A DNA stretch of 64,000 bases from an uncultured Ponticaulis sp. (lineage in GTDB: Bacteria; Pseudomonadota; Alphaproteobacteria; Caulobacterales; Hyphomonadaceae), in NCBI GenBank assembly GCA_964009795.1, contig CAXGHQ010000007.1, forward strand, positions 81,553 to 145,552, written 5' to 3'. The notes beneath the pieces were generated by a model. That model searched no databases. It saw only the letters and a program-made list of their open reading frames with translations, and was not told the DNA's origin. Both the position numbers and the translations under genes were made by a program. Numbering within the stretch: position 1 is the first letter of the stretch; each line of letters opens with the position of its first letter. This document shows positions 43,933 to 52,459 of this stretch, piece by piece.

Positions 43933-44925
43933 TCAGCTAGGGGCCTTAAAGCTTAGATAAGCCAACTTTCTGACCTCATGCCGTCCTCGATGTATAAGGT
44001 CTAGAATTAGTCCGGTGAAACTGGCGAAAACCGCCAATAGTCCGATGAATCCGCTCAAGATAAATGTCGGTAGCCGTCTCACCAGGCCGGTCTCGAAATA
44101 TTCCAGAATGACGGGAACGGATAAAGCTACTGAAAGAACAAACAAACAAAGACCAATCATCGAAAAAAAGAAAAACGGACGTTCGCGACGGACAAGTTGC
44201 ACAATGGTCAAAAGAATTCGGAAGCCATCTCGAAACGTATTGAGTTTACTGACCGAATTCGGGGGGCGTTCTTTGTATTTTGTCTGAATTTCTGAAATCG
44301 GCATGCCGAGTTCCAGGGCGTGTACCATCAATTCAGTCTCGATTTCGAAGCCCGTGGAGGAGGCCGGAAATGATTTGATAAAACGCCGAGATAACGCCTT
44401 ATATCCCGAAAGCATATCGTCGACTTGGCGTCCGAAAATCCAAGCAACAACCCCGGTGAGCATTTTATTCCCGAACTCGTGTCCAGGTCTGTAAGCTTCC
44501 GTTGATTCATGGATGCGTGCGCCGTTTACATAGTCAAATGGCCCGTCCACACAACGTTGAATGAGCTCTGTGGCGGCGGAAGCGTCATACGTAGCATCGC
44601 CATCAACCATCAATATGATTTCGGCGTCTACATCTGCAAAAGCTCGCCGTATTGCGAAACCTTTTCCCTGCCGTCGCTCATGACGTACGATTGCACCGCA
44701 GTTTGACGCAATTTCGGATGTCCTGTCTGACGAATTGTTGTCGAACACATATATCTTCGCCTCTGGTAATACCTGTCGAAAGTCTTGGACAACACTTTCT
44801 ATCGTAAGTTCTTCATTATAGCATGGCACAATCACAGCAACGTTTGCGCCATTGGCAAAACGATTTCCTGCTTTTACGAGTTCGGAACTCTCTGGTTTGC
44901 TCTCTTGCAATGTCTCATAACTCAT
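43933..44925 (-). CDS. GtrB-like GT2 polyprenol-phosphate glycosyltransferase
   Basis: VIVPCYNEE, DNNSSD, DGDATYD, two C-terminal TMs; start placed at MSYET. Confidence 0.9.
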   Translation of the reverse strand: MSYETLQESKPESSELVKAGNRFANGANVAVIVPCYNEELTIESVVQDFRQVLPEAKIYVFDNNSSDRTSEIASNCGAIVRHERRQGKGFAIRRAFADVDAEIILMVDGDATYDASAATELIQRCVDGPFDYVNGARIHESTEAYRPGHEFGNKMLTGVVAWIFGRQVDDMLSGYKALSRRFIKSFPASSTGFEIETELMVHALELGMPISEIQTKYKERPPNSVSKLNTFRDGFRILLTIVQLVRRERPFFFFSMIGLCLFVLSVALSVPVILEYFETGLVRRLPTFILSGFIGLLAVFASFTGLILDLIHRGRHEVRKLAYLSFKAPS

Positions 44926-44960
44926 CGCTGTTGTGTCCCATAGTTTTTCCGAACGTCGCA

Positions 44961-46640
44961 CTAGTTTAGTTTCTGTTCGTCGATTGGTATATCATTATAC
45001 CCTAGATAGTTTGTTGTGTTGCAGTTTTGCTGAACCCCGCTGCCGGACGTGTGGATCCTTAGCAAGACGGGTTTAGTGACAACTTGCTTTGGACTAGTGC
45101 CCACATGCAATTTTGTTTCGAGAGCGGGCCATTGCTCGAGTGCGGATTCGATTGGAATTACTTCAGAGCTCAGTGTTCGTCCGTCGGCGAAAGTCAGGCC
45201 GTCTAATTGGCGTTCGTAATAGGCCTCTGGTTCTGACTGGAATTGTGTTGGATAGGAAAAAGCGAGCGCTGACCAAGCGGCGCGAGTGCTGCCGAAAAGT
45301 AATTGGCATCCATTATTTAGTGGCTCGGTAATCGACTGGTTGAAATAGGTATCCGCAGATCCGAGCCAATAAGGCTCGCTCACCCCTTGGCGAGTTGTAG
45401 GTATCAGAACGTTTCTGTAAGACCAGTGAGAAACAACTGAAATAACCAAAAGTGCTATCGTCAAAATACTGAGATATTCTTTTCGTTCACCAAATTTACG
45501 AAGTATAGATGGAAATTTTACATTGTTCGTTATTAGGCCGATCGCTCCGCCAATTACCAATATAGATATGGGCAGAAGTGGCCAGAGATAACGGTCATTC
45601 AGCGGTTGTCCAAGTACTAACGGAGATAGCGAAATGATAAAAAAAGTGTTCACTAATGCGAAGGACAGTCCAATATAGATACAAAATTCAATTGCCCTAA
45701 ATCGAGATTTTTCACTCTCGGAATATTCTGGCAACAAAGAGTTTACTTTGAAAATTTTTGACGAAAATAAAAGTAAAAAACTGCAAACAAAAAAGGCGAA
45801 GTAGGCAATTTTTGACAAATATTCAGTAAGATTTAAAAGCCACCATCTTCGAGCGATGTCAATATATTCGTAATTGTTATAGATGGTCTCCATTCCGGTA
45901 ATGTGTCCGCCTTGAACTATCGCTTGTGGTCTGCCGAACAGAATATGGGATGAAGATAAAATCGCATTCGTGGATATCGTTTCCACGGCAAAAAGAAAAA
46001 GTGTTCCGACGACAGCGATAGTCAATTCTTTCCATCTTTGCCTGAATAATTCTAACAACCCGAGACCAAAATAGAAAAATACGTTTGTTTCTTTTATGCC
46101 GTAGACCACGAATAGGCACAAAATCGCCGCAAAGTAGTAAGTTAAATTGGCGGTCATTTCGTATTTGCAGATTAGTGCAATGACGATAAGAAGCCCGAGG
46201 CAGGTATAAAGGGAAGGCATAAAGGCCGGTGCCATAAAATAGCTTGTTGGATTCAGAATCCAGAAAGCTGCAGCCAGAATGGAAATTGGTGCGCCTGACA
46301 CAAAGCGGGTTAGTACTGCTAACAAAGATCCCGACAGTGAGAAGACAAGATAATTTAAGACTAAATAAGACGCCGCTGACGAACCGAAAAGGAATACCCA
46401 GACCGTTGCCGGGAAGTTCATTCCCCATCTTAAATTGTGATGGTTCGCATCGAAGTCTGGCAACCGGAATTCTGCCCAGTACGATATTGGAATCCACTTA
46501 TGTTCGACATCGCCGTTTTCATTGATTGTTTCTGAGCCAACAACAGCTGCCAAGAAACACGCCAAGAAAACAAACGCAGCCAGAACAAGTCCGGAGCGAT
46601 CAAAAAGCTTCACCATGTTTTTGCTGACCACCCCACCCAT
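44961..46640 (-). CDS. GtrC-like polytopic GT-C glycosyltransferase
   Basis: About 12 TMs, acidic residues and HH.LR.G..FP in the first loop, AT-rich, directly upstream of gtrB/gtrA. Confidence 0.62.
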   Translation of the reverse strand: MGGVVSKNMVKLFDRSGLVLAAFVFLACFLAAVVGSETINENGDVEHKWIPISYWAEFRLPDFDANHHNLRWGMNFPATVWVFLFGSSAASYLVLNYLVFSLSGSLLAVLTRFVSGAPISILAAAFWILNPTSYFMAPAFMPSLYTCLGLLIVIALICKYEMTANLTYYFAAILCLFVVYGIKETNVFFYFGLGLLELFRQRWKELTIAVVGTLFLFAVETISTNAILSSSHILFGRPQAIVQGGHITGMETIYNNYEYIDIARRWWLLNLTEYLSKIAYFAFFVCSFLLLFSSKIFKVNSLLPEYSESEKSRFRAIEFCIYIGLSFALVNTFFIISLSPLVLGQPLNDRYLWPLLPISILVIGGAIGLITNNVKFPSILRKFGERKEYLSILTIALLVISVVSHWSYRNVLIPTTRQGVSEPYWLGSADTYFNQSITEPLNNGCQLLFGSTRAAWSALAFSYPTQFQSEPEAYYERQLDGLTFADGRTLSSEVIPIESALEQWPALETKLHVGTSPKQVVTKPVLLRIHTSGSGVQQNCNTTNYLGYNDIPIDEQKLN

Positions 46641-47010: not shown

Positions 47011-48939
47011 ATGTCGGCGGAGCAGGTCTCAAGCGTTTCGGATGCGCGCGTCTTTCTCTCCTATTGCCGGGAAGACCGCTATTTTGCCCGCCAGCTCGAA
47101 CTTGTCCTGAAGGATAAGGGCTATGATCCGCTGATCGACACCCAAGCCATTGTTCCGGGCGAACCCTGGGAAGACCGGCTGGCAGGCATGATCGCGCAAT
47201 GCGATACCGTCGTCTTCATCCTCACGGCAAAATATCTCGACTCCCATTATTGCAATTGGGAACTCACTCAGGCGCTGACCCAGGGCAAACGCATGGTGCC
47301 GGTGCTGCCACAGGCGCTGCCGCCCGGCACGCAGGTGCCAGAGGACCTCGCACGCCTGCAATACATCCAATTCTACTCTGACAGCGAGATCCCGGATTCG
47401 GGCTTTTATGTCGGCATGGGCAAGCTCGACGAAGCCCTGCGTCTCGATCTCGACTGGCTGCGCCAGAAACGTCGCTATGACGAGCGCGCCGTCGATTGGG
47501 GCAATTCGCAATCCAGTGAGCTTCTTCTCAGCGGCGTGCTGCTGGAGGAGGCCGAGACCTGGAGCAATAGTGTTCCCAAGGGAAATGAAATTCCGCCCGA
47601 AATCCAGTCCTTTATCGCGGCCAGTCGGGAGCGCGAAGATATCCGCATCCGCAATGCGAAACGCGCGCGGTCCGTCGCCTGGTCGGCTGTTTTCATCACA
47701 GCCGCACTCCTTGGTGCGACGGGCTATTTCTACTGGCAGCAACAACAGACACTCGGCGAACTGGAAGACAAGTCAGCCGAACTCATCACCGCCACCAATG
47801 ACAATCTGGCGCTGGCGCGCGCCGCCAATTTCTGGGCCGATTCCAAACGCCAGCTGGCGCTCAGCGAATTTGAACGCCTCACCCCGGAAGAGATTTTTGA
47901 TGAACAGCCGCTCGATCAGGCGCAGACCGGCATTCAATTCCTTCAGGACGAGATCAACAGCCTGAGCCCGGCGGCCAAGACGGCGCACCGCGACACCATC
48001 CGGTCCATGCGGCGTGACCTCGCAAAGATCTTCTTCTTCAAGGAAAACTCCGACGCCATCGCCACGATCAATGACCTCATCGCCGAACAGCAAGACGATA
48101 TGGCGGCCCTCAATGCTGAGGATCTGGTGCTTACCGGCGAGGCGCTCGAAATGGCGCGGACCGGACTGCGCGTCCAGCTAGGGCGCGATGTGCTCAGCCG
48201 GGCGGTCTATGCCTGCCTCGACAATGCCAGTGTCAGCGATATTCGCGCCGGGCTGGATGAGGTCTCGATTGAGGTCCTGGAAGACCCGCAAGTGCCTTCC
48301 GTCCTGCGATTTCTCGACAAGGCTCCCGACCGGTTTTGCGAGAATGCGCGCGCGGTCATTTGCGAGCAATACACACTCTCAGCCTGCGAGCTTGGCATGA
48401 CGGATGCGGTTCGCCAGCAGAGTATTTATGTCCAACAGCAAATGCCCGCGCCGCTCGCCCCGGCAACCGGCGGGGACAACACGGCTCAGCCTCCGCCGCC
48501 GCGTGCTCAGGTGCAGATGCCGATCAGACAAACCCCGGCTCTGAAAGATCGCTCCTATTCCTCTCAGGACAGGTTGGCCTATCAGATTTCTGATCTGGTC
48601 ATCCATGTCAGCACCCAGGAAAAGATGAAAGCCGCTGAATTGTTCGCCGCAAAACTACGTGAGCGCGGCTATACGGTCTCGCTCGAGCTCGTAAAGGGCG
48701 ATGCCACACGGTCTATCCGGTATTATTATGACATTCAGGAAGAGCAGGTGAAAACCGATCTGACTGAGGCCTGTATTGCAGCGGCCGAGGCCGCGCTGTC
48801 CGATCTGGATCGCTCCGGCGACGCGAACGCACAAACCGAGCAAATTCTAAAAAACTGGAGCAAGGGGTATGAGCGGTTTATCTCCCTTGAGGGCCGGTTC
48901 AAAGGCTTGCGCAAAAACCGCGTCGAAATCTGGTTTTAA
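47011..48939 (+). CDS. Membrane-anchored TIR protein (TIR, helical linker, TM, large extracytoplasmic region)
   Basis: VFLSYCRED, SHYCNWE, LLLSG..L.EAE.W linker, KRAR followed by a TM at ~47674-47736, Cys-containing C-region ending RVEIWF. Confidence 0.8.
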   Translation: MSAEQVSSVSDARVFLSYCREDRYFARQLELVLKDKGYDPLIDTQAIVPGEPWEDRLAGMIAQCDTVVFILTAKYLDSHYCNWELTQALTQGKRMVPVLPQALPPGTQVPEDLARLQYIQFYSDSEIPDSGFYVGMGKLDEALRLDLDWLRQKRRYDERAVDWGNSQSSELLLSGVLLEEAETWSNSVPKGNEIPPEIQSFIAASREREDIRIRNAKRARSVAWSAVFITAALLGATGYFYWQQQQTLGELEDKSAELITATNDNLALARAANFWADSKRQLALSEFERLTPEEIFDEQPLDQAQTGIQFLQDEINSLSPAAKTAHRDTIRSMRRDLAKIFFFKENSDAIATINDLIAEQQDDMAALNAEDLVLTGEALEMARTGLRVQLGRDVLSRAVYACLDNASVSDIRAGLDEVSIEVLEDPQVPSVLRFLDKAPDRFCENARAVICEQYTLSACELGMTDAVRQQSIYVQQQMPAPLAPATGGDNTAQPPPPRAQVQMPIRQTPALKDRSYSSQDRLAYQISDLVIHVSTQEKMKAAELFAAKLRERGYTVSLELVKGDATRSIRYYYDIQEEQVKTDLTEACIAAAEAALSDLDRSGDANAQTEQILKNWSKGYERFISLEGRFKGLRKNRVEIWF

Positions 48940-48947
48940 GAGGTTCT

Positions 48948-48974
48948 CGCTCATCCCCGCGCAGGCGGGGATCT
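48948..48974. repeat. REP-like hairpin, copy 1
   Basis: cgctcatccccgcgcaggcggggatct, identical to 51127-51153. Confidence 0.88.
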
Positions 48975-49084
48975 GGACAAAACAAACACACGCCCCACCA
49001 CCAACTCCGCCCACATCACGCAGGCGCTCACAGCGTTCATAAAACCCGGTTCACAACCGCATGAATTCTCCGTAAGGAAAAACC

Positions 49085-51046
49085 ATGGCGGACGTGTTTA
49101 TCTCTTACAAGGCGGAACGGAAAAATGCTGCGGAGCATCTGCGCCACATATTGGAGGCGCATGGCTTTTCCGTCTGGTATGATTATCAGCTGAAAACGGG
49201 CACGGATTTCGACCTCCAGATCATGCGCGAGCTGAATGCGGCCAAGGCCGTTGTAGTGCTCTGGGATTCCTTGTCAGCCAACAGCCCCTGGGTGAAGCTC
49301 GAAGCCATGACCGCCCGGTATAACGACACTTATGTGCCGGTGATGATCGAAGATTGCACGCTCGATACCGAGTTCGCCAAAGGCCAGTATGAAGATTTGC
49401 GCCGCTGGAGCGCCGAACCGGCAGCCTATCGACCAGAAAAGCTGATCGAAACGCTTGAAGAGAAACTGGGGCGTCACGCCACCGCTGATCGCACGACCCT
49501 GAAATCCCTCCATGAAGAATGGCGCAAATACGGCAAGCAAAGTCTCGCGAAATTTTCCCTGTCAGCCATTCCCGACAAGCGGGAAGCTGAAAAGCAGCCG
49601 CCTGTCGATCTGGAAGCTGCTGCAAAAGCCGCCTCCCGCATGGGTGAGGCCTCTGACACGGCCATAGTGACCGGTGACGCCGCAGCCGAATTCCGTGAGA
49701 TTCAGCACAGCCTGAACCCGGCGGATTATCGCTTGTTCCTGTCTCATGTGCCTGACGGGCCGATTGCGTTCCGGGCTGCGCGTCAGCTGAAACAGCTGGA
49801 AGAGTGGGACGATCTCGATCAGACGAATGCTGAGGCGATTGCGGATTTCCTCTCTCGCCATAATGGGGGCAAGGCGCTTTTTCCGAGGCTGCAAAAACAT
49901 GTGCGCAGCACGCAGAAGGGCATTCAGGGCAAGAGCCGGAAAGCTGGTACAGGTCGCTCAACGCCTGGCGGCAAACGATGGGGGTGGTTGGAAGCCCCAG
50001 CGGCGATTGTTTTGGCGCTTGTTGTCGCTTGGTTTTGTGTGTTCGGACTTCCGAAAATCTTAGACACATCGACAAATAAGCAGCCAATTCAAACCGGCAA
50101 ATCTTCATCGTCAGCGCCGCCCCCGCTGTCCGATTTTACTCCCGAAAAGCAAATTGCGGGAGTCCGCCTTGATAAAATTCTTTCGGGACATATTCTCTGG
50201 GTTTCTTCCGTGGCGTTCAGCCCGGATGGGCGGACCGTGCTTACGGGCGGTGGCAGGACAGTGCGGCTTTGGAGCGTGGAGACGGGAGAGCCCCTCCACA
50301 CGCTGACGGACCATGAGAGCAATGTCATGTCCGTGGCGTTCAGCCCGGACGGGCGGACCGTGCTCACGGGCTCCGAAGACAAAACTGCGCGGCTCTGGAG
50401 CGTGGAGACGGGGAAGACCCTCCACACGCTGACGGGCCTTGAGGACTATGTCTCCTCCGTGGCGTTCAGCCCGGATGGGCGGACAATGCTCACCGGCTCT
50501 GGTGACGGGACAGCGCGGCTGTGGAGCGTGGAGACCGGTGAGACGCTCCAAATGCTGACGGGCCATCTGGGACCGGTCTGGTCCGTGGCGTTCAGCCCGG
50601 ATGGACGGACCGTGCTCACGGGCTCTGATGACGGGACAGCGCGGCTCTGGAGCGTAGACACTGGGGAGACGCTCCACGCGCTGACGGGCCGTCGGGGTCC
50701 GGTCTGGTCCGTGGCGTTCAGCCCGGATGGGCGTACCGTGCTCACGGGCTCGTTTGACAGTGCAGCGCGGCTCTGGAGCGTGGAGACGGGGGAGACCCTC
50801 CACACGCTGACGAGCCATGAGGGCAGGGTCTCGTCCGTGGCGTTCAGCCCGGATGGACGGACCGTGCTCACGGGCTCTGATGACAAGACAGCGCGGCTCT
50901 GGAGCGTGGAAACCGGGGAAACCCTCCACACGCTGAGAGGCCATGAGGCCTATGTCAATTCCGTGGCGTTCAGCCCGGATGGGCGGACCGTGCTCACGGG
51001 CTCTTCTGACACGACAGCGTGGCTCTGGGATGTGATTTACGATTAA
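49085..51046 (+). CDS. TIR, TM, seven-repeat WD40 propeller protein
   Basis: VFISYK, SPWVKLE, TM at ~49991-50050, seven GH...SVAFSPDGRTVLTGS.D.TARLW repeats. Confidence 0.9.
   Translation: MADVFISYKAERKNAAEHLRHILEAHGFSVWYDYQLKTGTDFDLQIMRELNAAKAVVVLWDSLSANSPWVKLEAMTARYNDTYVPVMIEDCTLDTEFAKGQYEDLRRWSAEPAAYRPEKLIETLEEKLGRHATADRTTLKSLHEEWRKYGKQSLAKFSLSAIPDKREAEKQPPVDLEAAAKAASRMGEASDTAIVTGDAAAEFREIQHSLNPADYRLFLSHVPDGPIAFRAARQLKQLEEWDDLDQTNAEAIADFLSRHNGGKALFPRLQKHVRSTQKGIQGKSRKAGTGRSTPGGKRWGWLEAPAAIVLALVVAWFCVFGLPKILDTSTNKQPIQTGKSSSSAPPPLSDFTPEKQIAGVRLDKILSGHILWVSSVAFSPDGRTVLTGGGRTVRLWSVETGEPLHTLTDHESNVMSVAFSPDGRTVLTGSEDKTARLWSVETGKTLHTLTGLEDYVSSVAFSPDGRTMLTGSGDGTARLWSVETGETLQMLTGHLGPVWSVAFSPDGRTVLTGSDDGTARLWSVDTGETLHALTGRRGPVWSVAFSPDGRTVLTGSFDSAARLWSVETGETLHTLTSHEGRVSSVAFSPDGRTVLTGSDDKTARLWSVETGETLHTLRGHEAYVNSVAFSPDGRTVLTGSSDTTAWLWDVIYD
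50180..51040 (+). repeat. Seven highly similar 126-bp coding WD40 repeats
   Basis: Invariant 20-mer tccgtggcgttcagcccgga at 50207, 50330, 50456, 50582, 50708, 50834, 50960 (spacing 123, then 126). Confidence 0.97.
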
Positions 51047-51082: not shown

Positions 51083-51196
51083 TGTCCCGGGCGAAAACCC
51101 GGGATCTGGATGAGGCAAGCCACACACGCTCATCCCCGCGCAGGCGGGGATCTCCACGAGAGCGCTACCAGACCCCGTCTTTCGACGGGGTGAGCG
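51083..51196. repeat. REP-like hairpins, including copy 2 with a partner arm
   Basis: tcccggg-cgaaaa-cccggga hairpin; 27-mer at 51127-51153; partner accccgtctttcgacggggtgagcg ending at 51196. Confidence 0.75.
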
Positions 51197-51217: not shown

Positions 51218-52378
51218 TCACTCCACGATCGCGGGCTCGGTCAGCAAGAGCCGTGCAATCGCACTGAACGTCGCGCCGAACGCCTCTTCATCTGACTGGT
51301 TCATATGCATCACCATCACTGTATCGGTATCCGCGCGATAATAGGCGGCTGAGAAATAGCCGGTGATCCCGCCCGTATGGCCCTCGACCTGCGCACCGGC
51401 GCGGTTTTCCATGGTTCCAACGCCAAGACCTTCATAGCGGCGTTCGCGGCTCACAAACGGGTCTGCCGTCATCACCTCACCCACATCGGCCAATGCGCCA
51501 TCCGGAGCGAACAGCGCTCTGTAGAACGTGATCAGATCATCCGGCGTTGCCATGATGCCGCCATCCGGTCCGGTATTTTCCCGGCTCTCGAACATGTCCT
51601 CCCAGCCGTCAAAATCCTCGCCATAGCCGTGAATGACATCGCCCGGTGGGTGGAGAACATTATAGCTCGTGTCATCGAGGCCAAGCGGCTCGAAGATCCG
51701 GCTTTGCAGCAGCGCGCCCAGCGCTTCACCTGTCTCTTTCTCCAAAATGAGCGCCAGCAGATGATAATTCGTGTTGGAGTAGGCGTGATCCTCCCCCGGT
51801 GTGCCGGTGGCACTCTCGCCCTTAATCAGCGAGAGTGCCAATTCGGGCGTTAAAGGCGTATTCGGGTCATAGGTCGCATAGAATTGGGCGTTGTAATAAT
51901 CCGGAATGCCCGATGTGTGGTTCATAAGCTGTCTGATTGTCGGGTCGAGACCTTCCGGAATGCGGCTCAGCACATCCTCGCCGAGATAGGTCGAAATCGG
52001 CGCTTCAAGATCCACCACGCCCTCATTCGAGAGGATCACCGCCAGCGCCGCCATATAGGTTTTGCAGATACTCCCGAGCCGCATGGGCGCATCCGTCGGC
52101 ATGGGCAGGCCTGTTTCTGTGTTCGCCACCCCACGCGCCAGCGCGATCCGTTTCCCGGGCTTGTCGATCACAACAATGATGCCCGGTACAGTTTCAACGG
52201 GCACCTCATGGATGATGGCGCTGACCTCATCTCTGAGCGTCTGCTGATCGGACGCAGCACTGGTTTCGTTTGCCGCTGGTGCGGGCTCCTGCGCGGTCTG
52301 TGGGCTGCAGGCGGAAACCATAAGGCCGGTCGTCAGAATGGCAGGTGTCAGAATGTTGGTCAGCCTGGTTCTCAGCAT
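51218..52378 (-). CDS. Serine hydrolase (beta-lactamase/PBP family), predicted lipoprotein
   Basis: SICK (SxxK), YSN, GHTG; signal ending VSAC. Confidence 0.9.
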   Translation of the reverse strand: MLRTRLTNILTPAILTTGLMVSACSPQTAQEPAPAANETSAASDQQTLRDEVSAIIHEVPVETVPGIIVVIDKPGKRIALARGVANTETGLPMPTDAPMRLGSICKTYMAALAVILSNEGVVDLEAPISTYLGEDVLSRIPEGLDPTIRQLMNHTSGIPDYYNAQFYATYDPNTPLTPELALSLIKGESATGTPGEDHAYSNTNYHLLALILEKETGEALGALLQSRIFEPLGLDDTSYNVLHPPGDVIHGYGEDFDGWEDMFESRENTGPDGGIMATPDDLITFYRALFAPDGALADVGEVMTADPFVSRERRYEGLGVGTMENRAGAQVEGHTGGITGYFSAAYYRADTDTVMVMHMNQSDEEAFGATFSAIARLLLTEPAIVE

Positions 52379-52459
52379 GCGGCGTCTCCCATTGTGTCCG
52401 GCCCCCAACTTGGGGGCACATTATCGAACACTCTATGCCGCGCGCATTCAAATACCAAT

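Follow-up and report, generated by a model that had tools for sequence, protein, structure and literature searches.

A TIR protein with a predicted membrane helix and a seven-bladed, highly repetitive WD40 propeller from an uncultured Ponticaulis

A 64,000-nucleotide stretch of contig CAXGHQ010000007.1 (positions 81,553 to 145,552, forward strand; hereafter the window, to whose numbering coordinates refer unless another scaffold is named) from an uncultured Ponticaulis sp. of the alphaproteobacterial family Hyphomonadaceae encodes a protein that joins an N-terminal TIR domain, a helical module, one predicted transmembrane (TM) helix and a seven-bladed WD40 propeller with a highly variable face. 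The explanation that we favor overall, and to which we give about an even chance of being right, is an immune-type receptor working from the outside in, with a periplasmic propeller that would sense a ligand and a cytoplasmic TIR domain that would act as an NAD+-cleaving enzyme (NADase) once the ligand had clustered the receptors. The immune role and the activation by clustering are what we infer; the protein combines known kinds, TIR effectors and highly repetitive WD40 sensors, and is not a categorically new system.

Results

The WD40 propeller and its variable face

An initial sequence-only reading of the window, made without database searches, had described exactly seven 42-residue WD40 repeats that are near-identical in DNA. 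Seven repeats are also what Pfam finds, but the first has 41 residues and the lengths run 41+42x5+39. Tandem Repeats Finder places a 126-nucleotide array at 50200-51028 (6.6 copies, 83% matches, score 1063), and homogenization of the repeats is clear, but near-identity overstated it: mean nucleotide identity among the seven repeats is 0.857 at scaffold codons. The structure prediction that had been proposed as a check was carried out with AlphaFold2 (AF2) on the whole protein, giving a mean predicted local distance difference test score (pLDDT) of 81.8 and, at a pLDDT of about 97, a seven-bladed propeller whose ring is closed by an N-terminal strand (residues 357-367) and a C-terminal strand (residues 644-652). 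Foldseek matches the propeller to PkwA (5yzv; template modeling score, TM-score, 0.97; 46% identity) and to WRAP-T (7big; TM-score 0.98), with the Nostoc structure 2ymu also near, and overall the identity to bacterial highly repetitive WD40 structures is 46-49% at TM-scores of 0.97-0.98.

Within the protein, column entropy is highest at unit positions 1, 7, 8, 9, 11, 27 and 29. DSSP applied to the AF2 model puts positions 7-9 in the d-a loop, makes position 11 the second residue of strand a and finds positions 27 and 29 flanking the Asp of the b-c turn; positions in the d-a loop and b-c turn form what we take, from established WD40 anatomy, to be the top face of the propeller. Trp, Arg, Tyr and Ser dominate at the variable positions. 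The three closest orthologs (P0002, P0003 and P0004) have seven repeats each and vary at the same columns, so that the concentration of variation at set sites on the top face, first noted from this one sequence, extends to its relatives.

To avoid a circular choice of sites, variable columns were defined from three orthologs and tested in the fourth. Cross-validated in this way, the proportion of nonsynonymous differences (pN) in the Ponticaulis protein is 0.54 at the variable columns versus 0.11 elsewhere, and across all four orthologs it is 0.48-0.61 versus 0.09-0.17; in 2000 random draws of seven columns, pN never came up to the observed value. At the variable columns pN is 1.4-2.4 times the whole-repeat proportion of synonymous differences (pS), a measure of the ratio of nonsynonymous to synonymous rates (dN/dS) that rests on seven short gene-converting repeats, with some sites near saturation. 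Diversifying (positive) selection on the binding face is suggested, and the data are compatible with it, but seven recombining repeats fall short of proof.

Scaffold-codon nucleotide identity within a protein is 0.86-0.89 in three of the four orthologs versus 0.58-0.79 between proteins, and same-index repeats of different orthologs are about as alike as different-index ones, that is, positional orthology is absent. In P0002 (L024 6001-7947) one block of two repeats occurs two times, as repeats 1 and 2 and again as repeats 5 and 6, and in a metagenome-assembled genome from the Hyphomonadaceae (L100 3931-4893) three consecutive repeats are identical. The homogeneous scaffold, the lost positional orthology and these duplications together show ongoing intragenic duplication and conversion, signs of the homogenization and reshuffling that the sequence-only reading had proposed. 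The variable sites remain different while neighboring codons become homogenized, and the propeller changes faster than the TIR domain (58% versus >90% identity to P0004). We also weighed a diversity-generating retroelement as the origin of the variation and, without a search for one, set it aside: the variable codons have no adenine-specific pattern, and the variation lies between repeats rather than between a template and a target.

TIR domain and helical module

Pfam TIR_2 (PF13676) scores 74 bits over residues 4-114, well above its curated cut-off of 28. In plant and bacterial NADase TIRs the motif S-x-W-C-x-x-E places the catalytic Glu at W+4, and the corresponding stretch here is S67-P-W69-V-K-L-E73, in which E73 (49301-49303) is the candidate catalytic residue, its position assigned from motif spacing rather than from structural superposition. 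The early observation of a Glu at the NADase position is upheld by the invariance of E73 across 13 aligned homologs, a property shared with F5, I6, S7, Y8, W60, S67, W69 and V70. Among solved TIR domains, sequence similarity is greatest to 7uxr, from a bacterial TIR, to PdTIR (3h16) and to AbTir (7uwg), with weak E-values throughout. Judged by its profile and the retained Glu, the domain looks enzymatic and of the NADase type.

The helical module that follows carries the motif EF..I..SL...DY.LFLSH.P.G..AFRAARQL and is common to P0002, P0003, P0008 and P0016 but absent from P0004. Pfam gives no match to it at E<=1, and a Foldseek search with the whole model returned WD40 matches only and none for residues 198-289. 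As had been noted from the sequence, no NACHT/STAND or other NTPase lies between the TIR domain and the membrane helix, TIR_2 being the sole Pfam match in residues 1-360 at E<=1.

Membrane helix and topology

Residues 304-322 (APAAIVLALVVAWFCVFGL) reach a Kyte-Doolittle mean of 2.47 over 19 residues and form the only such segment in the protein, with seven Lys/Arg in the 25 residues before it and three Lys in the 20 residues after it; the single TM segment preceded by basic residues is thus as originally described. AF2 places a helix at residues 307-319 with low confidence. The protein has no N-terminal signal peptide. Should the helix span the membrane, the propeller would have to lie outside, since a signal peptide is absent and the TIR enzyme needs cytoplasmic NAD+.

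Homologs are informative about orientation. Of 91 homologs of the N-terminal region, 40 have a clear helix immediately C-terminal to the TIR domain, and in 33 of these 40 the N-terminal flank has more Lys/Arg than the C-terminal flank; the same asymmetry is found in all 54 clear-helix members of a second TIR subfamily, which was found via a paralog. A helix is present in all six homologs with OmpA-like (P0012/13), PF11860 muramidase-type (P0017/20/21) or SBP_bac_3 (P0058) domains and in none of six fusions with cytoplasm-typical domains (two DnaJ_C, a ParA-like ATPase, a bactofilin, a nucleotide cyclase and a kinase). The family-wide positive-inside bias and the fact that peptidoglycan-binding domains always follow a helix argue for a periplasmic propeller, and the protein is most probably a single-pass, N-in/C-out (type II) protein. 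The topology first proposed is in this sense the best supported; its periplasmic sensor is argued from such patterns and is not a constant of the family, because the membrane helix is retained in P0004 and P0002 while a charged helix takes its place in P0003, and L099 also lacks it.

Gene model and expression

An AAGGA ribosome-binding site lies 8 nucleotides upstream of the ATG at 49085, and one public gene call (P0214) is the identical 653-residue protein. Another public call (P0001, 579 residues) begins at Met75 and so loses half of the TIR domain, in the region 49085-49307; we prefer the start at 49085 over the Met75 start, since the ribosome-binding site, the homologs and P0214 agree on it. 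A metatranscriptome contig spanning 48966-49366, from a marine sample that contains the genome, crosses the full-length start, and further metatranscriptome contigs match parts of the repeat region with zero differences. Judging by these contigs, expression of the gene in situ is very probable, with the caveat that metatranscriptome libraries may carry over DNA. The features of the gene and its surroundings are collected in Table 1.

Table 1. Features of the gene, its surroundings and the AF2 model (window coordinates; residue numbers for model segments)
Feature	Position	Strand	Remarks
Whole gene, TIR - helical module - TM - 7xWD40 protein	49085..51046	+	Intact open reading frame, 653 aa (amino acids), stop codon counted in coordinates
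TIR domain (aa 4-114 by Pfam) and conserved C-terminal extension to about aa 150	49094..49534	+	TIR_2, E 1.9e-20
Helical module, predicted cytoplasmic, about aa 198-289	49676..49951	+	Five helices, AF2 pLDDT about 90
Single hydrophobic helix, predicted signal-anchor, aa 304-326, APAAIVLALVVAWFCVFGLPKIL	49994..50062	+	Kyte-Doolittle 2.47 over 19 residues; Lys/Arg-rich stretch before
Seven-bladed WD40 propeller, aa 357-653	50153..51043	+	Pfam WD40, 7 stretches, E 7.5e-84
Neighboring TIR_2 gene, 642 aa, moderately hydrophobic helix at aa about 222-243	47011..48939	+	TIR_2, E 7.7e-26
27-bp (base-pair) hairpin repeat resembling repetitive extragenic palindromic (REP) elements, upstream copy, CTCATCCCCGCGCAGGCGGGGATCT	48949..48975	+
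REP-like 27-bp hairpin repeat, downstream copy, CTCATCCCCGCGCAGGCGGGGATCT	51128..51154	+
AF2 segment, TIR	residues 1-150		pLDDT about 85
AF2 segment, disordered linker	residues 160-196		pLDDT below 50
AF2 segment, five-helix module without Pfam match	residues 198-289		pLDDT about 90
AF2 segment, low-confidence stretch with helix 307-319	residues 290-353		pLDDT below 50
AF2 segment, seven-bladed propeller	residues 357-652		pLDDT about 97

TIR repertoire and family distribution

The 3.84-Mb genome contains 23 TIR_2 matches, 22 of them above the cut-off, and the Glu is retained in 20 of the 23 paralogs. Four proteins, including the one described here, have the TIR-TM-WD40 architecture, two are TIR-WD40 proteins without the helix and two are TIR-DnaJ_C proteins, while TIR-nSTAND1-TM (L007), TIR-ParA-like, TIR-TM-MORN, TIR-polytopic and TIR-DUF805 occur once each; the remaining TIR proteins have no recognized second domain. 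Among the modules joined to the TIR_2 proteins of the genome (e.g. L001-L020) is an MFS-like 13-TM domain. With four copies in the genome and hundreds of related proteins in databases, the architecture is not unique. Repeats that are repetitive at the DNA level are found, among the TIR paralogs of the genome, only in the protein described here. A sensor domain is missing from one 270-residue paralog (L003, G000:C10:61638-62450), which is 54% identical to the TIR domain and its extension and might be either a truncated copy or a free-standing TIR partner.

Elsewhere, nine congeners have 0-4 TIR matches each and a different genus of the family has as many as 34; a comparison with 30 related species revealed no ortholog of the gene. 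Carriers of the N-terminal TIR type include Hyphomonadaceae, Parvularculaceae, Hyphomicrobiales, Caulobacterales and other groups. An alignment-based scan of GTDB genomes identified 78 family loci, of which two, L099 (without the helix) and L100, match the protein over its full length; the N-terminal 360 residues, run as a single-protein query against GTDB genomes, gave no match. On the strength of these comparisons of sequence, this is a large alphaproteobacterial family that joins one N-terminal TIR domain to interchangeable sensor modules. A search for STALD gave no match in the genome, and none in control genomes either.

Genomic neighborhood

The gene is adjoined by another TIR gene, a beta-lactamase-family gene and a major facilitator superfamily (MFS) gene. 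The neighboring TIR protein (47011-48939) has a helix with a Kyte-Doolittle mean of 1.57 and a 400-residue C-terminal region with five Cys and no recognizable domain, for which a single-sequence AF2 model was uninformative (pLDDT 44). It is 74% identical to the product of the same-position gene in the TARA scaffold L021, where the tandem of this gene and the WD40 gene is kept between the che operon and an MFS transporter gene. The genes for P0002 and P0003 are solitary amid housekeeping genes.

A low-GC block at 43933-46640 (GC 0.45), with a family 2 (GT2) glycosyltransferase and a 559-residue polytopic membrane protein, and the beta-lactamase-family gene at 51218-52408, downstream, are both absent from the otherwise syntenic L021 (che operon - TIR - TIR/WD40 - MFS), which suggests that they are local insertions.

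The 27-bp REP-like sequence forms a perfect direct repeat that brackets the gene. These are its only two exact copies in the genome, where 18 matches at up to three mismatches were found, the bracketing pair included and about 16 diverged; L021 has a diverged upstream copy only. A metagenome joint at 48975->51131 (side 23), which skips the whole gene, was rejected as an artefact of this flanking repeat.

Relation to known systems

The order TIR, one TM segment and beta-propeller has been listed before. In their supplement, Kaur, Iyer, Burroughs & Aravind (eLife 2021; PMC8195603) record 'TIR+TM+BetaPropeller' twice, as a neighbor of nSTAND1 genes, 'TM+BetaPropeller' 280 times and also 'nSTAND1+TM+BetaPropeller', while their main text is silent on TIR+TM+BetaPropeller and TM+BetaPropeller. 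The paralog L007, a TIR-nSTAND1-TM protein, recalls the same set of architectures, but the protein described here has neither a STAND NTPase nor an nSTAND1 neighbor, and its highly repetitive units vary at defined sites.

For the propeller, the nearest parallels are the fungal HET-E/HET-D/HNWD proteins, which belong to the nucleotide-binding, leucine-rich-repeat-type receptors (NLRs), and the bacterial highly repetitive WD40 proteins (PMC5587647; PkwA, 5yzv; Nostoc WRAP, 2ymu), with which it shares conserved repeats, diversity confined to the top face and signs of exchange between repeats. Hu et al. (2017; PMC5587647) described the latter, with diverse hot-spot positions, without mention of TIR domains or membrane topology. 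Unlike the HET-E/HNWD NLRs, the Ponticaulis protein has no NACHT/STAND NTPase, HET or kinase domain, its effector is a TIR domain and its propeller is predicted to be extracytoplasmic.

With Thoeris ThsB, AbTir and PdTIR the protein has in common a TIR_2/ThsB-like fold with a Glu at the catalytic position. No Thoeris effector gene (ThsA SIR2/SLOG, Macro-TM, caspase, SLATT and others) was found beside it, however, SIR2_2 is absent from the genome, and ThsB has neither membrane anchorage nor a repeat sensor. Standalone TIR proteins were explicitly discarded in a systematic Thoeris survey (Yirmiya et al., 2025 preprint; 10.64898/2025.12.03.692087), and in the literature we found no description of membrane-anchored bacterial TIR receptors.

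A Toll-like arrangement had also been proposed. Like animal Toll-like and IL-1 receptors, the protein is predicted to cross the membrane once, between a TIR domain in the cytoplasm and a sensor built of repeats outside it. The sensor in those receptors is built from leucine-rich repeats or immunoglobulin domains, however, whereas here it is WD40; Toll-like receptors are type I proteins with a C-terminal TIR domain, whereas here the TIR domain is N-terminal and the orientation of the chain is reversed; and the TIR domain here looks enzymatic rather than adaptor-recruiting. What stands of the proposal is an apparently convergent layout, an analogy rather than a homology.

Discussion

In the receptor model that we favor, the protein would be a type-II inner-membrane protein, with the TIR domain and helical module in the cytoplasm, a signal-anchor helix and the WD40 propeller in the periplasm. 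Recombination among the 126-nucleotide repeats would keep the propeller scaffold uniform, while six or seven top-face, ligand-binding positions per blade, rich in Trp, Arg and Tyr, would change quickly. A periplasmic ligand, which might be a phage or competitor protein or a product of envelope damage, would bind the top face and cluster the receptors in the plane of the membrane, bringing their TIR domains together. The active site of TIR NADases is formed by self-association, and because of this requirement the clustered TIR domains would be expected to cleave NAD+, with either NAD+ depletion that halts growth or an ADP-ribose-derived signal as the outcome. Across the family, the helix would decide where the modules joined to the TIR domain lie, in the periplasm if a protein has it and in the cytoplasm if not. 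The patchy copy number and the missing orthologs in relatives amount to a conflict-type distribution, which we count in favor of this model.

Several findings weigh against it. The setting is one of housekeeping genes, syntenic in L021, with the che operon on one side and the MFS transporter gene on the other, and no defense island or mobile element was found at the locus. No partner effector was found beside the gene (the search did not extend to SLATT and other newer families of effectors), the 23 TIR loci share no recurrent neighbor family, SIR2_2 is missing from the genome, and PADLOC gave weak TIR-level matches only, the models being those of ThsB and SAVED-TIR. Database copies at >=90% identity are all identical, so that the species showed no allelic diversity, and the selection ratio has the narrow basis described above. 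P0003, whose N-terminal part is 73% identical and whose propeller is 76% identical at scaffold codons, has no membrane helix, and L099 combines a TIR domain with a highly repetitive propeller likewise without one; these two proteins indicate that the propeller is not intrinsically periplasmic and that the sensor does not require the periplasm to work. The TIR-propeller unit would seem to be used on either side of the membrane, and to be cytoplasmic in the orthologs without a helix.

One alternative is a role in normal physiology rather than in immunity, in which the protein would serve envelope signaling or scaffolding, the TIR domain would be a homotypic module or a regulatory maker of an NAD-derived messenger, and the propeller would bind a self component of the envelope. 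The syntenic neighborhood free of mobile elements and the failure to find an effector partner fit such a role, and the peptidoglycan-binding, DnaJ_C, ParA-like and MFS-like modules of the family suggest cell-biological functions. A self ligand would not favor a fast-changing binding face, however, the copy number is extremely patchy among congeners with 30 relatives lacking an ortholog, and the catalytic Glu is kept in nearly all paralogs, so we regard this role as unlikely, though worth keeping in view.

A second alternative concerns the variable face, which might reflect recent amplification of the repeats together with relaxed constraint on surface loops, hypervariability then arising as a by-product of concerted evolution without new specificities being selected. 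In any WD40 protein the top-face loops are under the least constraint, gene conversion depresses the apparent scaffold dS and so inflates the ratios, each gene offers just seven repeats, and the database look-up yielded no allelic variants. Against this, independently chosen sites have a pN of 0.48-0.61, above the whole-repeat pS in all four orthologs, the variable sites stay distinct despite homogenized flanking codons, and their enrichment in Trp, Arg and Tyr resembles the binding hot spots of highly repetitive WD40 proteins (PMC5587647). We consider a pure by-product improbable.

That the hydrophobic segment instead lies buried as a helix, or serves as a peripheral or re-entrant anchor, with TIR domain and propeller both cytoplasmic, is very unlikely: although the near orthologs P0003 and L099 function without the helix and AF2 confidence for the segment is low, isolated membrane helices usually receive low AF2 confidence, the segment comprises 19-23 uninterrupted apolar residues (Kyte-Doolittle 2.47), the positive-inside asymmetry is consistent over about 94 family members, and the presence of a helix correlates perfectly with periplasm-typical C-terminal domains.

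The receptor model can be extended, tentatively and with considerable doubt, from one protein to a germline repertoire of outside-in TIR receptors in this bacterium and its relatives. Such a repertoire would recognize invaders at the level of the envelope, before they reach the cytoplasm, through periplasmic propellers whose binding faces are reshuffled and diversify; candidates for recognition are toxins injected by competitors, periplasmic predators and the tail or ejection proteins of phages, and the TIR NADase would fire without a STAND ATPase. Gain or loss of one membrane helix would relocate the sensor between periplasm and cytoplasm.

To our knowledge, the known bacterial TIR and NLR-like immune sensors act on threats within the cytoplasm. 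If the receptor model is true, attack on the envelope could be sensed in a simple way, by a TIR enzyme that one helix ties to a diversifying propeller in the periplasm, and this arrangement would be a convergent counterpart to the Toll-type receptors of animals. Databases contain hundreds of members of this large family, annotated merely as 'TIR domain-containing protein', and this genome, with about 22 paralogs that join a TIR domain to other modules and with close orthologs that have or lack the helix, is a compact test bed in which the coupling of a TIR domain to its sensor without an ATPase, and the nature of periplasmic immune ligands, may become approachable.

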